From: Candidatus Marinacidobacterales bacterium
GTDB lineage: Bacteria > Acidobacteriota > Vicinamibacteria > Marinacidobacterales > DATDRI01
Reading direction: 5' to 3'
Assembly: GCA_965219415.1 (NCBI GenBank)
Contig: CBDCNP010000002.1
Coordinates: 4,288,001-4,352,000 of the forward strand
Length of the DNA stretch: 64,000 nucleotides
The position numbers and the translations under genes were made by a program. A model generated the notes under the pieces. It worked only from the letters and a program-made list of their open reading frames with translations. It was not told the origin of the DNA and searched no databases. This document shows, in pieces, positions 2,520-50,666 of this stretch; position 1 is the stretch's first letter; each line of letters opens with the position of its first letter.

Positions 2520-2639
2520 GTTGCTGTCAAGTTGAGGTCTCGAGCTCGGAGCGGGCCGCTAGATAATGGGGCTCGAGCGTACCGCGTTGCCAACATCTTG
2601 GGGTCCGGTCGGTCCCGAATGCCTCAACTAATAAGAAAC

Positions 2640-3878
2640 TCAGGGTGTAGCGTTGGCAAGAGGTGTGAGAGTGACGTCAAAACCGAGCTCCCTTAGGCGT
2701 CGTGTCATTCGTATTGTGAGCTGTTCCTTGTCGCGTTGATGGAAGTAATCGGCACCCAGTTCCCGGTATGGAATCTCATTGTGGAGCATGTAGTAGACGG
2801 CGGTGATGATGGAGGCGGCGACGGCGACGACAGCTTTCTTGGGGCCCCGACGAGACTTGAGCCGGAAGAACTGGGCACGCAGATAGCTGTCGCGCTTGCG
2901 GCTTGCCGCCCAAGCGGCTTGGACAAGAGCGGTCTTGAGCCATGGAGCCCCTTTGCGGGTTTTCTGAGAAAAGCGTTTACCGGCACTCTCATGAAGCCGT
3001 GGGCATAGACCGGCCCAAGAGCGAAGGTGTCCGGCCGTTGGGAATGCCGAGACATCGGGTCCGATCTCGGCGACGAGAATGGCCGCCGTGGCTTCACTGA
3101 TGCCCGGGATCGTCACCAGAAGCTCGACGGCCGATCGAAAAGGGCGCAGGCTCTCTGTGATACGGGATTCGAGCGCGCTCACTGAGGCTTCAAGCTGCTC
3201 GATATGATGGAGATGAAAACCCAACAGGAAACGATGATGGTCGGTAACGTAGCCCTCGAGCGCTGCGCTCAATTCCTGTTCAGTGGCTTTGAGTCGGCTC
3301 GAGCCCAGCTCACTCAGCTTGTGAGGGTCGCTTTCTCCCGCAATGATCGCTCGGAGAATCGCCCGCCCGCTTACTCCCAAAATCGTGCTAATCACGCTCG
3401 TCAATTTGATGTTCGCGTCTTCCAACGTCTTTTGAATTCGCTGGGTCTCCCGAGCGATTTCTCGAACGAACTGCTTTCGCGTTCGGGTCAGCTCTCGCAG
3501 TTCCTGGATCGGCGTTGGCGGAACGAAGCTAGCTCGAATGAGACCATGGGCAAGCAAATCCGCTATCCACAAGGCATCACTGATATCGCTCTTACGACCC
3601 GGCATGTTCTTGACGTGGGCCGGTTGTGCCAACACCAACTCAAAATGACCTTCGAGCACATGCCACACCGGCTTCCAATACACTCCGGTCGCTTCCATCG
3701 CTACAATCGTGCAACCGCACTGCCCCAGCCAATCCAACATTTCCAGCAATTCGCTCGTGGCCGTGCCGAACACACGCGTCTCGCGCACCACCTTCCGCTT
3801 CGACGCTACCCGCACGCAAGCCGTAATCGATTTCTGGTGGACGTCCAATCCGGCGCATCGCTTATGAACCACTCTCAT
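2640..3878 (-). CDS. IS110-family DEDD recombinase/transposase, apparently intact
   Basis: CAGLDVH, AMEATG and KSDISDA (DEDD); TIPGIS; HESAGK serine motif. ATG at 3878 follows AAGGAGG. Confidence 0.95.
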   Translation of the reverse strand: MRVVHKRCAGLDVHQKSITACVRVASKRKVVRETRVFGTATSELLEMLDWLGQCGCTIVAMEATGVYWKPVWHVLEGHFELVLAQPAHVKNMPGRKSDISDALWIADLLAHGLIRASFVPPTPIQELRELTRTRKQFVREIARETQRIQKTLEDANIKLTSVISTILGVSGRAILRAIIAGESDPHKLSELGSSRLKATEQELSAALEGYVTDHHRFLLGFHLHHIEQLEASVSALESRITESLRPFRSAVELLVTIPGISEATAAILVAEIGPDVSAFPTAGHLRSWAGLCPRLHESAGKRFSQKTRKGAPWLKTALVQAAWAASRKRDSYLRAQFFRLKSRRGPKKAVVAVAASIITAVYYMLHNEIPYRELGADYFHQRDKEQLTIRMTRRLRELGFDVTLTPLANATP

Positions 3879-4107
3879 CGCAGCCTCCTTCACGTCGCAC
3901 CGGCGTGGAGCCCACGAACTTGTAATCTAATAGACGCGCTCAACTATCCCAGCTGGAATAGAAAACGCAATTTGGGGTACGCGCAGGACTCCCAGCCAAA
4001 CTTGACAACGGGCTCAGTCGCACCAACGTTAAGCCGAGCTCTGAGCCGGTGCCACCTTCACAGACTACCGCGTTTCATTTATTCGGGGTGACCGCCAGGC
4101 CGTGGAA
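3879..4107 (-). ncRNA. Candidate IS110 bridge RNA region (left non-coding end), copy 1
   Basis: About 230 nt, conserved in three copies, with several stems and target/donor-matching segments. Position is as known for IS110-group bridge RNAs. Confidence 0.65.
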
Positions 4108-4124
4108 AACTTGACAGTACCGTA

Positions 4125-4336: not shown

Positions 4337-4776
4337 ACTCCGGTCGCTTCCATCGCTACAATCGTGCAACCGCACTGCCCCAGCCAATCCAACATTTCCA
4401 GCAATTCGCTCGTGGCCGTGTCGAACACACGCGTCTCGCGCACCACCTTCCGCTTCGACGCTACCCGCACGCAAGCCGTAATCGATTTTTGGTGGACGTC
4501 CAATCCGGCGCATCGCTTATGAACCACTCTCATCGCAGCCTCCTTCACGTCGCACCGGCGTGGAGCCCACGAACTTGTAATCTAATAGACGCGCTCAACT
4601 ATCCCAGCTGGAATAGAAAACGCAATTTGGGGTACGCGCAGGACTCCCAGCCAAACTTGACAACGGGCTCAGTCGCACCAACGTTAAGCCGACCTCTGAG
4701 CCGGTGCCACCTTCACAGACTACCGCGTTTCATTTATTCGGGGTGACCGCCAGGCCGTGGAAAACTTGACAGTACC
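4337..4776 (-). mobile_element. IS110 copy 3: left end plus 5' part of transposase, same target junction
   Basis: Near-identical to 3682-4121, including AAAACT|TGACAGTACC. Confidence 0.9.
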
Positions 4777-13816: not shown

Positions 13817-14370
13817 ACGCAACGATTGACCGTGTGTTCAAAGAATACGAGCAGTATCTGCGGGACTGGCCGTCCGTCGTTAATCGGCACAGGCGGAGCT
13901 TGAAGCTGACATTCGTGCTGGACAACGCGGGCACAGCACCAGCCGATAGCGTGCATGTACGGTTCTGGACAGAAGCCGATGGCGTATGGCTGGAGGAACT
14001 GCCCGACGTGCCGCAACTGCCCGCGATGCCCAAGAGGCGCGGCCCGTTCGACCTGGGCTTTGACTTTCGGGCGCCGCTGTACAACGCAACCCATCTGCCC
14101 CAGCTCGACCGCGACATGGAAGGCCCCACCATTACGGACGACGAACCGAAGCAGGTCAAGTTCTGGATGAAACGCGTGATGCATCATTTACCGGTGAAAC
14201 TGCCAGCGGTGCATTTTCAGTTCCGCGCGGATGAGAGTGTCAAGTCATTCGGCATTAACTATCAGTTGGTCGCGGCGAACATCCGGAAACCTAAGACGAA
14301 CGTTCTCCACGTGAAGCTGTCAATGGCCGCGCCCATGGCGCCGCCGCTGCCGGGCAGCGAAGCGGACTAG
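13817..14370 (+). pseudogene. 5'-truncated hypothetical protein
   Basis: Long open, protein-like frame starting directly at the MITE end. Confidence 0.5.
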
Positions 14371-15132
14371 TAGGTAGGGTGTGCGCCGCAGCGGTCATTC
14401 CAACTGACGCATGACAAAACAACTCCAGCGCTTCTTTCCATTCGGCCTCTTTCGATTGCACGAATATGGCGATCGCGCTCCTGCATGGCGGTGTTCGAAT
14501 TCTGACTGAGCGTAGCGTTTCGTTGCGGCGGAATCACCACGCGCGTCCTTCGTCCTGGGCTGTGCGCTTCGATGGCTTCGTAGACCGCTTCCTTGTCGTA
14601 TGCACTGTCCGCCACCACCGACGCTAGAGGTGCTTGAATCTGTGTTAGCAAAGGGGGGACTCGCGTTGCGTCGCGAGCTCGTGACGCCGTCAGTTCCGAC
14701 GCAACAATGTTGCCGGTCTTGCGATCAACGGCGATGTGCAACTTGCGCCAGGCGCGCTGCTTTGGCGGTTTGCGGGCGGTTCCAACATGAATCCTCAAGC
14801 CCGTGCTATCGAGCATTAGGTGGATTGATTGCTTGCTTGCGGCTTTCCCAATCCGCCGCTTCTTGCAGAGCAGCCTCGACCGCCGACACCACGTCGAGTA
14901 GTCCGGGAGCTCGATACACAGCCGGAGAAGCGAGGCGATCGAGTGCAAGAAACCCTCGGTTTGGCGGTAGGCAAGCTTGTACACCATCCGGACAACCAAG
15001 CCCGTTTCAATCGCCATCTCTGAATAGACCCGTTGACCGCCAGGCTTACCGCTCTTGTCGGCCTTCCAGTTCGCGATTGCCTCCTCGTCAAACCAGACCT
15101 TCAAATCGCCCCGGCGGCGCAGCCCTTCGTTG
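14367..15132 (-). pseudogene. IS5-family (IS903 group) transposase, truncated at both ends
   Basis: NEGLRRRGDLKVWF, PDYST, LDSTGL, WRKLH, ADSAYD. N-terminus cut by the MITE TIR at 15133. Confidence 0.85.
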
Positions 15133-15146
15133 GGTACTGTCAAGTT

Positions 15147-15375
15147 TTTCACGGCCTGACGGCCACCCCGAATGAATGAAACGCGGTAGTCTCTGTAGGT
15201 GGCACCGGCTCAGAGGTCGGCTCAACGTTGGTGCGACTGAGCCCGTTGTCAAGTTTGGCTGGGAGTCCTGCGCGTACCCCAAATGGCGTTTTCTATTCCA
15301 GCTGGGATAGTTGAGCGCGTCTATTAGATTACAAGTTCGTGGGCTCCACGCCGGTGCGACGTGAAGGAGGCTGCG
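15147..15375 (+). ncRNA. Candidate IS110 bridge RNA region, copy 2
   Basis: Target-like TGTCAAGTT at 15247-15255 and donor-like TATTAG at 15322-15327. Stems GCACCGGC/GCCGGTGC, GGCTCAG/CTGAGCC and CTATTCCA/TGGGATAG. Confidence 0.65.
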
Positions 15376-16614
15376 ATGAGAGTGGTTCATAAGCGATGCG
15401 CCGGATTGGACGTCCACCAGAAATCGATTACGGCTTGCGTGCGGGTTGCGTTGAAGCGGAAGGTGGTACGCGAGACGCGTGTGTTCGGTACAGCCACGAG
15501 CGAATTGCTGGAAATGGCGGATTGGCTGGGGCAGAGCGGTTGCACGATTGTAGCGATGAAAGCGACCGGAGTGTATTGGAAGCCGGTGTGGCATGTGCTC
15601 GAAGGTCATTTCGAGTTGGTGTTGGCACAACCGGCCCACATCAAGAACATGCCGGGTCGTAAGAGCGATATCAGTGATGCCTTCTGGATAGCGGATTTGC
15701 TTGCCCATGGTCTCATTCGTGCTAGCTTCGTTCCGCCAACACCGATCCAGGAACTGCGAGAGCTGACCCGAACGCGAAAGCAGTTCGTTCGAGAAATCGC
15801 TCGGGAGACCCAACGGATTCAAAAGACGTTGGAAGATGCGAACATCAAATTGACGAGCGTGATGAGCAGCATTTTAGGAGTAAGCGGGCGAGCGATTATC
15901 CGAGGGATCATTGCGGGAGAAAGCGACCCTCACAAGCTGAGCGAGCTTGGCTCGAGCCGACTCAAAGCCACTGAACAGGAATTGAGCGCAGCGCTCGAGG
16001 GCCACGTTACCGACCATCATCGTTTCCTGTTGGGTTTTCATCTCCATCACATCGAGCAGCTTGAAGCCTCAGTGAGCGCGCTCGAGTCCCGTATCACAGA
16101 GAGCCTGCGCCCTTTTCGACCGGCCGTCGAGCTTCTGGTGACGATCCCGGGCATCAGTGAAGCCACGGCGGCCATTCTCGTCGCCGAGATCGGACCCGAT
16201 GTGTCGGCTTTCCCAACCGCCGGACACCTTCGCTCTTGGGCCGGTCTGTGCCCACGGCTTCATGAAAGTGCCGGTAAACGCTTTTCTCAGAAAACCCGCA
16301 AAGGCGCTCCATGGCTCAAGACCGCTCTTGTCCAAGCCGCTTGGGCGGCAAGCCGCAAGCGCGACAGCTATCTGCGTGCCCAGTTCTTCCGGCTTAAGTC
16401 TCGTCGCGGCCCCAAGAAAGCTGTGGTCGCCGTCGCCGCCTCCATCATCACTGCCGTCTACTACATGCTCCACAACGAGATTCCATACCGGGAACTGGGT
16501 GCCGATTACTTCCATCAACGCGACAAAGACCAGCTCACAAAACGAATGACACGACGCCTGAGGGAGCTCGGTTTTGACGTCACTCTCACACCTCTTGCCA
16601 ACGCTACACCCTGA
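15376..16614 (+). CDS. IS110 recombinase, full length, catalytic E changed to K
   Basis: AMKATG in place of the AMEATG seen in copies 1 and 3. Confidence 0.9.
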   Translation: MRVVHKRCAGLDVHQKSITACVRVALKRKVVRETRVFGTATSELLEMADWLGQSGCTIVAMKATGVYWKPVWHVLEGHFELVLAQPAHIKNMPGRKSDISDAFWIADLLAHGLIRASFVPPTPIQELRELTRTRKQFVREIARETQRIQKTLEDANIKLTSVMSSILGVSGRAIIRGIIAGESDPHKLSELGSSRLKATEQELSAALEGHVTDHHRFLLGFHLHHIEQLEASVSALESRITESLRPFRPAVELLVTIPGISEATAAILVAEIGPDVSAFPTAGHLRSWAGLCPRLHESAGKRFSQKTRKGAPWLKTALVQAAWAASRKRDSYLRAQFFRLKSRRGPKKAVVAVAASIITAVYYMLHNEIPYRELGADYFHQRDKDQLTKRMTRRLRELGFDVTLTPLANATP

Positions 16615-16943
16615 GTTTCTTATTAGTTGAGGCATTCAGCGCCGATCCGACCCCAAGATGGTATTGGTCAACAGCCCGACGATAGACCTTCACATGGCGG
16701 CTCTTGTCGAAGTCTCGACGGTCGACTGTGAAGCCCCTCAGAATGTTGATGCAATCGTCCATGTGCTGCATCAGGCCCTGGACCCACGAGATGATGGGCC
16801 GAGAAGCTATCGAGTACACGCGGGGCAAGGAAGTTGCGGATGCGCTAGACACCTTCCTAGCCGAGTACGACAAGACCACGACATCTAGTGAGCGGTCCAA
16901 CCAAGAGATATAGTAGCGTAAAATCGCATGATGGAGACGTTGC

Positions 16944-50612: not shown

Positions 50613-50634
50613 GCGACGGCCGCGGCTTTAGTAG

Positions 50635-50666
50635 GGTGCTGTCAAGTTTTTCACGGCCTGACGGCC
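50635..50666 (+). mobile_element. IS110 left-end remnant in the same TIR target (copy 4)
   Basis: GGTGCTGTCA|AGTTTTTCACGGCCTGACGGCC, cut by lineage D at 50667. Confidence 0.8.

Follow-up and report, generated by a model that had tools for sequence, protein, structure and literature searches.

An IS110-family insertion sequence in a Candidatus Marinacidobacterales genome probably encodes, in its left end, a structured guide RNA with two multi-branch loops, an AG core and a guide order that is the reverse of that of IS621. The element lies at 15145-16626 of a 64,000-nt stretch of DNA (GenBank assembly GCA_965219415.1, contig CBDCNP010000002.1, positions 4,288,001 to 4,352,000, forward strand; hereafter the window, from whose first letter coordinates are counted), and its left end, 231 nt of non-coding sequence, precedes the transposase gene. 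A preliminary description made from the sequence of the window alone had proposed this left end as a candidate bridge RNA, and the strings that it quoted lie where it placed them: TGTCAAGTT at 15247-15255 (with a junction copy at 15138-15146), TATTAG at both 15322-15327 and 16621-16626, and GCTCAAC at 15220-15226, with GCTTAAC in two of the three left-end copies of the window. The proposal itself is borne out by covariation of the left target and left donor segments with their DNA partners, both in 30 homologues and in a separate set of metagenome loci.

Guides and fold of the probable left-end RNA

Relatives of the element were collected by a scan of one genome per species, which found 424, and 80 loci were kept. 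Thirty left ends, those of 29 cluster representatives and of the window copy, make up alignment A1, in which element ends were set by motifs free of any guide: the conserved start of the left end, and GTT[TC]C-N5-AG past the stop codon. A metagenome scan supplied an independent set of 80 further loci with 53-64% protein identity, whose ends were set by left-guide matches for the tests of the right flank and of the guide extension described below. In sliding scans over the whole left end, each segment was compared with the element's own partner sequences and with shuffled ones and given a z score. The comparison covers roughly 100 distinct elements, namely the 30 homologues and 70 distinct metagenome loci.

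The two left guides carry the strongest signal. At 15247-15253, the successive positions agree with the element's own left flank plus AG in 24, 28, 29, 30, 30, 30 and 30 of the 30 homologues; at 15321-15327, the first position agrees with the element's own right end in 17 of 30 and the six others in all 30. Mutual information at these positions is 1.0-1.7 bits, a value attained by none of 300 permutations, and the sliding scan peaks exactly at the two segments, with z = 12 for the target and 11 for the donor and at most 2.8 elsewhere for those two queries. The result is repeated in the independent set, where the left-target-guide 7-mer recurs upstream in 57 of the 67 loci with enough flank, mostly 52-57 nt ahead of the model start, and the left-donor-guide 7-mer recurs downstream in 46 of 58; we estimate the chance of a random 7-mer match at about 1% per locus. 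The preliminary description had allowed that matches this short could be chance, an explanation that covariation across the homologues and metagenome loci excludes. Both segments read as top strand, as do the 5'-side guides of IS621, which pair with the bottom strand according to the passages of PMC11208160 used here. The segments starting at 15247 and 15322 are very probably the left target guide and the left donor guide of a bridge RNA.

The left target guide continues into a two-base 3' extension. The whole of 15247-15255 had been described as the left target plus core; the identity with the flank stands, while the core is AG and not the final TT, and so lies two bases away from where it had been put. 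The trailing TT tracks the start of the element's own left end, whose first two bases it matches in 28 and 29 of the 30 homologues, as against only 6 of 28 at each position for the first two bases of the right flank. Eight left ends start with something other than TT, and the extension matches both bases in five of them. The independent set agrees, with 50 of 55 loci showing the first two left-end bases in the extension. The handshake guides of IS621, as presented in the passages of PMC11208158 used here, follow the right guides on the 3' side and bind positions 6-7 of the other DNA's top strand.

These guides are embedded in a conserved fold. The consensus structure, computed with RNAalifold on A1, has 96.9% of cells paired and 18 of 31 pairs compensatory, which 0 of 500 shuffles attain, and pairing falls to 34-43% when partners are slid. 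A fold of the single left-end sequence is no better than shuffles (z = -0.70) and is uninformative, so the structure was taken from the alignment. At the helix closing the target loop, each of two pairs is doubly changed in one sequence (L059 and L067, judged by eye). At the closing of the donor loop, helix 4 is changed on both sides in five of six pairs, as is the adjoining single pair of helix 5, and 97.8% of cells are paired. An all-against-all column scan added the pair 15287-15317 (alignment columns 171/218), C-G in 21 and U-A in nine of the 30 sequences, which closes the variable hairpin of the donor loop and mirrors the hairpin of the target loop. The helices also contain G-U pairs, which would be A-C mismatches on the opposite strand and so favour an RNA of the plus strand. 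A pseudoknot between GGUGC and GCACC was considered and dropped: L077 breaks it, and a local hairpin suits all sequences.

Four stems had been named in the preliminary description, and two of them survive the alignment, the outer stem (96% of cells paired, all five of its pairs changed on both sides) and the variable hairpin 15293-15300/15304-15311. The other two are lineage-specific at best, since past its invariant GGC/GCC the stem GGCTCAG/CTGAGCC fails to pair in 26 and 19 of 30 sequences, and TTTGG/CCAAA is paired in only 52% of cells. The internal pairing that had been suggested between GCTCAAC and GTTGAGC is likewise not conserved, with no such column pair passing the all-against-all scan.

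The preliminary description had named as checks the covariation of guides with target and donor, which gave the z scores of 12 and 11 above, and a covariance model of homologous left ends. Such a model, R1, was built on the 162-nt core and has 157 positions. It has a full match upstream of the gene in 75 of the 80 independent metagenome loci, and it finds the three copies in the window as well as RNAs upstream of relatives on a Variovorax plasmid and a Cupriavidus plasmid, whose guides match their own flanks too. In the source genome R1 has 10 matches, compared with two full-length transposase genes. On this count, solo left ends and the MITE-like derivatives (miniature inverted-repeat transposable elements, MITEs) described below belong to the system in annotation.

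The right half of the target appears to be read from a loop 5' of the left target guide. The best left-end segment for the top-strand complement of the right flank is the 8-9-nt variable loop between the conserved GAGGTCGG and TGGTGC, with z = 4.4 and a value of 1.6 for the next unrelated segment; when the register is anchored on the conserved flank, two adjacent registers are significant (0 and 1 of 3000 shuffles) and the rest are at chance. In the independent set, the mean longest run of complementarity between loop and right flank is 3.0 compared with 2.5 when shuffled (z = 4.3, 0 of 5000), a same-sense control is flat (1418 of 5000), and the sliding scan peaks at the same loop, again with z = 4.4. 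Long matches are seen by eye in L013 (10 of 11 bases), L016, L101, L144, L155 and L151, and in both L016 and the window element the loop matches the core G plus five bases. To the right of the window element's sites stands TT(G/A)(A/G)(G/C), a sequence that CUCAAC can accept with wobble, as can CUUAAC in the sister copies. A column-wise mutual-information scan missed this guide because two registers occur, and the signal is seen only in the run-based and register-anchored tests.

These results uphold two further points of the preliminary description. GCTCAAC had been noted to complement the GTTGAG of the target, and its loop is the only one in the left end that tracks the right flank as top-strand complement, in both sets. 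The loop layout had also been suspected to differ from that of IS621, and the loop tracking the right flank does lie 5' of the left target guide, with conserved sequence at the IS621-like 3' position. Elements whose targets differ nevertheless share this stretch, which runs from the left target guide to the donor loop, so it can hardly hold a programmable guide. On the comparative sequence evidence, the right target guide is likely to lie in the loop 15219-15228, although we hold this placement less firmly than the two left guides.

For the right half of the donor, the stretch from the left donor guide to the closing helix shows no covariation with the start of the left end in either set. A conserved right donor guide that pairs only with conserved bases might nevertheless be present. 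The left end also has a conserved GAAAC, 33 nt from its terminus, to which all 30 homologues have a complement in the right end (GTTTC, 7 nt from the terminus). A single matched change, GGAAC together with GTTCC, was seen by eye in L023 and is insufficient to choose between a short sub-terminal inverted repeat, a feature mentioned in the parts of Durrant et al. used here, and an extra pairing, either of which the two motifs may represent. A conserved hairpin is also present a few bases inside the left end, at 15152-15165 (A1 columns 8-22), and its two arms covary in the family, columns 20 and 21 with left-end positions 10 and 9. This hairpin could help recognise the right donor half.

The element, its copies and its target

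A BLAST search of 15001-16800 against the window and the whole genome returned a repeated unit at 15133-16660, with a counterpart at 4121-2594 on the minus strand for the second full copy. The crossover cannot be placed from the source genome alone, as AGTT is common to both junctions and the empty site of the window element. Five families with several copies each, taken from other genomes, settle where it lies: every right end closes with ...TAG and every left end opens after ...AG, and in cluster A the bases following TAG vary between copies. Together, the homologues, the empty sites, and the left junctions and mini-elements described below show that the duplicated core is AG (15143-15144 and 16625-16626), which is found at both junctions and once in the empty site, so that the element spans 15145-16626. 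The right end is 12 nt long. Its motif GTT[TC]C-N5-AG lies just past the stop codon in 30 of 30 representatives, a count to be read with the fact that the same motif had served to set the right boundary. The coordinates of the element and its parts are collected in the table.

Beyond the full copies, the genome holds many 3'-truncated left-end fragments and four MITE-like mini-elements that lack about 15213-16548. In each mini, 68 nt from the start of the left end are fused to the last 78 nt of the right end, without the bridge RNA; the four are found in G000:C3 at about 3521492-3521640, 4602933-4603090, 4618555-4618703 and 4370254-4370105. Each of the four sits at a site with TGTCAAG on its left and TT(G/A)A on its right, and their presence in matching target sites without a bridge RNA of their own implies mobilisation in trans. 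One metatranscriptome contig bears the mini-element joint 15212/16549. Eight left ends are broken off at differing points within the transposase gene, and the RNA is retained in each. A solo fragment at 50628-50666 of the window consists of the target flank and about 20 of the first left-end bases and is divergent beyond them. A plasmid search for the element returned relatives only about 70% identical. Head-to-tail tandem relatives were seen at L028, L029, L033, L041, L042, L045, L071-L080 and L082, from Vicinamibacterales genomes and a Variovorax plasmid, with the right end meeting the next left end directly or via a short repeated flank.

In nature the element inserts into the terminal repeat of a small MITE. 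Each of the 18 left junctions looked at in the genome carries the 7-mer TGTCAAG, beyond which, on the 5' side, the sequences diverge. Five uninterrupted genome copies run straight over the insertion point, and in the occupied copies the element stands between ...TGTCAAG and TTGAG.... Against an expectation of 0.96, a 12-mer spanning the site has 16 occurrences in the genome, most of them at the two ends of MITEs about 110 bp long. This MITE family has the insertion site in its terminal inverted repeats at both ends, comprises at least two sequence subfamilies, and is located at 2109-2220 and 2525-2533 of the window, with 16 sites in the genome. The string TGTCAAGTT occurs nine times in the window, where 0.24 is expected and 0 of 100 shuffles attain nine; by their coordinates, each of the nine falls at an element junction, in the internal guide of one of the three left-end copies, or in a terminal repeat of a MITE.

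To the left of the element, an IS5-like DDE transposase gene (PF13737, PF01609) occupies 14367-15152 on the minus strand. Its similarity to other genomic copies stops exactly at 15132, so its 5' end was cut either by the insertion of the MITE plus the IS110 element or by rearrangement. The right flank from 16660 on is part of yet another repeat. In a relative (L017:1244-1272), a 14-nt direct duplication lies across the left junction, and of its two copies only the outer agrees with the left target guide.

The transposase matches the Pfam domains DEDD_Tnp_IS110 (PF01548, 1.1e-26) and Transposase_20 (PF02371, 1e-23), and only its C-terminal Tnp domain aligns significantly to the solved IS621 recombinase (7.2e-10). 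In the window copy, residue 62 is K (AAA, 15559-15561), whereas it is E, in the motif VAMEATGVYW, in all eight relatives compared, copy 2 included, and the column is near-invariant E among 12 sequences. A weak alignment (domain i-Evalue 41) sets residue 62 on the E of the IS621 stretch IEATGTY, and E60 of IS621 is listed as catalytic in the passages of PMC11208158 used here. The E at residue 62 probably serves the DEDD domain as its second catalytic acid, and the window copy of the gene, which starts at 15376, may be inactive. With K62, the RNA of the window copy may depend on the recombinase of copy 2.

Table. Positions in the window of the insertion sequence, its predicted RNA and its target site
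Feature	Position	Strand	Remarks
Second full copy	2628-4109	-	96% identical; bridge RNA at 3894-4055; transposase residue 62 is E
Third copy	4337-4764	-	Ends inside the transposase gene; bridge RNA retained (4549-4710)
Left target flank TGTCA plus core AG (15143-15144)	15138-15144	+	Within the terminal inverted repeat of a MITE of about 110 bp
IS110-family insertion sequence	15145-16626	+	Left end, transposase gene and short right end closing with core AG; from BLAST, junctions and Pfam
Conserved GAAAC	15178-15182	+	Complements right-end GTTTC (16615-16619); like a short sub-terminal inverted repeat
Bridge RNA core as modelled	15199-15360	+	R1 match of 124.6 bits, E = 4.7e-26
Outer stem	15201-15209 / 15350-15358	+	Nine pairs, 7 changed on both sides; 96.3% paired
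Target-loop closing helix	15215-15218 / 15257-15260	+	GGUC/GACC; 99.2% paired
Candidate right target guide CTCAAC	15221-15226	+	Complements core G and right-flank TTGAG; in variable loop 15219-15228
Invariant hairpin TGGTGC...GCCCG	15229-15245	+	Between the two target guides; 100% paired
Left target guide TGTCAAG	15247-15253	+	5 nt of left flank plus core AG; from covariation
Two-base 3' extension TT of left target guide	15254-15255	+	Equals the first two bases of the element's own left end
Donor-loop closing helix	15262-15268 / 15341-15347	+	GGAGUCC/GGGCUCC
Variable hairpin	15293-15311	+	Inside the donor-binding loop; sequence changes across the family
Left donor guide	15321-15327	+	TATTAG (15322-15327) equals the last 6 bases of the right end (16621-16626) in the window copy
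Transposase gene, 412 aa	15376-16614	+	From translation
Right end	16615-16626	+	GTTTC, 5 programmable bases TTATT, core AG
Right target flank TTGAG	16627-16631	+	Full and mini copies have TT(G/A)(A/G)(G/C) on the right

A possible mechanism and its alternatives

In the mechanism that we propose, the 231-nt left end would be transcribed on the plus strand into a bridge RNA of about 160 nt, 15199-15360, in which a long outer stem would enclose two multi-branch loops, the target loop and then the donor loop. [quoted passage not shown] In the donor loop, past the variable hairpin, the guide UAUUAG (15322-15327) would present the sequence of the right end plus core. By analogy with IS621 and ISEc21, the recombinase-bound RNA would bring the circular donor junction and the target together, with strand exchange at the AG core. 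Each loop may be a circular permutation of the corresponding IS621 loop, the closing stem and the inner hairpin swapping roles.

A broader idea, which we put forward only tentatively and consider rather doubtful, is that IS110 relatives with transposases of about 405-417 aa, from Acidobacteriota, Planctomycetota, Gemmatimonadota and Proteobacteria, form a distinct class of bridge RNAs. Such RNAs would have permuted loops and no right donor guide. Past the core, their left target guide would extend by 2-4 nt into the left end of the element itself, as a bottom-strand 'handshake' reading the product junction, and a separate GAAAC would pair with the GTTTC beside the left donor half.

Several observations weigh against a left-end guide RNA with the layout proposed here. 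Rfam has no matching family, its two matches being at chance level (E about 1), and a scan of 15050-15450 found no sigma-70-like promoter or terminator. Metatranscriptome contigs from two of four runs cover 15237-15476 (with 1 mismatch) and 15310-15497, but they give no strand, ends or level and may stem from DNA carry-over. The invariant hairpin at 15229-15245 has no change on both sides, and covariation therefore speaks neither for it nor against it. The signal for the right target guide is modest in size (the mean longest run of 3.0 compared with 2.5) and needs two registers, many elements have only 2-3 complementary bases, and in the window copy the core A stands opposite a G. A right donor guide was not found by 5-mer matches, pairing matrices or sliding segments, where z was at most 2.3 in either set, nor was it found in the 5' strand of the donor loop, where analogy with the target loop would put it, in the 45-nt leader or in the 25-nt tail. 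The transposase of the window copy itself carries K62.

Some of these points could also mean that the RNA encodes only the two left guides, with the complementarity of loop and right flank an accident or due to some other cause, and with the right halves read by protein or barely read. The small size of the effect would suit this explanation, as would the right donor guide that was not found and the right flanks of cluster A, which are nearly random past AG. Yet the loop is the top segment in two separate data sets, at the same z in each, the related run-length test agrees with them and its same-sense control is flat. There are also the long matches in L013, L016, L101, L144, L155 and L151, and the element's own insertion sites keep TT(G/A)(A/G), as the loop predicts. 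We regard an RNA with left guides only as unlikely, though it is the most serious of the alternatives. A guide order like that of IS621, with right-side guides 3' of the left guides, seems very improbable. It is the order of IS621, ISEc21 and ISPpu10 in the passages of PMC11208160, PMC11187229 and bioRxiv 10.64898/2026.03.19.712850 that we used, but here the sequence from the left target guide to the donor loop is conserved despite differing targets, no segment there tracks the right flank or the right donor half, and the stretch after the left donor guide is silent with respect to the left-end start.

The least credible explanation, to which we give almost no weight, is that the matches operate at the level of DNA, or by chance, and no guide RNA is made. 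The metatranscriptome contigs, lacking strand and ends, and the missing promoter match are compatible with it; the guide covariation, the compensatory pairs with their G-U wobbles and the homology of the protein to experimentally RNA-guided recombinases are not what it would lead one to expect. A guide RNA with reversed order, bearing two left guides and a right target guide, is the reading that we prefer.

Comparison with known bridge RNAs and seekRNAs

Bridge recombinases are under development as programmable genome-writing tools. To our knowledge, nearly all mechanistic work on them has been done with IS621-like RNAs. The family described here amounts to a natural reprogramming experiment over roughly 100 distinct elements, against which one can test whether a given feature of the IS621 model is indispensable or only one of several workable solutions. 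Design rules for a second bridge-RNA scaffold follow from it as well.

Variety among bridge RNAs has been catalogued in 86 covariance models, many of which are described, in the part of bioRxiv 10.64898/2026.10.21.760802 used here (section 8), as visibly unlike the IS621 structure and yet covarying with target and donor. The figures and supplements of that work, including S12, may show this family or this guide order. In the published text on bridge RNAs and seekRNAs that was searched, by searches that were not aimed at guide order and had figures and supplements outside their scope, we found no left-end-encoded bridge RNA with a reversed order, a donor-tracking extension or a missing right donor guide.

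The system resembles IS621 (Durrant et al. 2024, Hiraizumi et al. 2024) in its recombinase with DEDD and Tnp domains, in an RNA encoded in a long left end upstream of the gene, and in a target loop that precedes the donor loop. The left guides are in the sense of the top strand and include the 2-nt core, the right target guide is a complement of the top strand that includes core bases, and the target is a repeated element, all as in IS621. The differences begin with the core, AG here and CT in IS621, and extend to the arrangement of the loops, where the right target guide comes 5' of its left counterpart and the donor loop carries its left guide on the 3' side. The left target guide has 5+2 nt here and 7+2 in IS621. 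Its 2-nt extension tracks the right half of the donor, whereas in IS621 it is the top strand that the handshake guides read, from a place 3' of the right guides. A right donor guide, present in IS621, was not found here, and the recombinase has 412 aa, compared with 328 residues for the IS621 chain in the PDB.

The seekRNAs of IS1111 elements (Siddiquee et al. 2024) offer a second comparison. The non-coding region lies upstream of the gene here and downstream in IS1111, the candidate inverted repeat is 5 bp long and asymmetrically placed where 7-17 bp is quoted for IS1111 in the passages available to us, and the 412-aa protein compares with a quoted 330-350 aa. In the passages of PMC11187229 used here, IS1111 seekRNAs have reversed guide order, while the IS110-type ISEc21 keeps the order of IS621. 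It is this order that our RNA shares with the IS1111 seekRNAs, together with what may be a short sub-terminal inverted repeat and with a target in the terminal repeat of another mobile element, as for IS4321/IS5075, going by a reference title in PMC11208160. Bridge RNAs, their diversity and the reversed order of IS1111 are already in print, and the system described here is one of a known kind with a variant layout.

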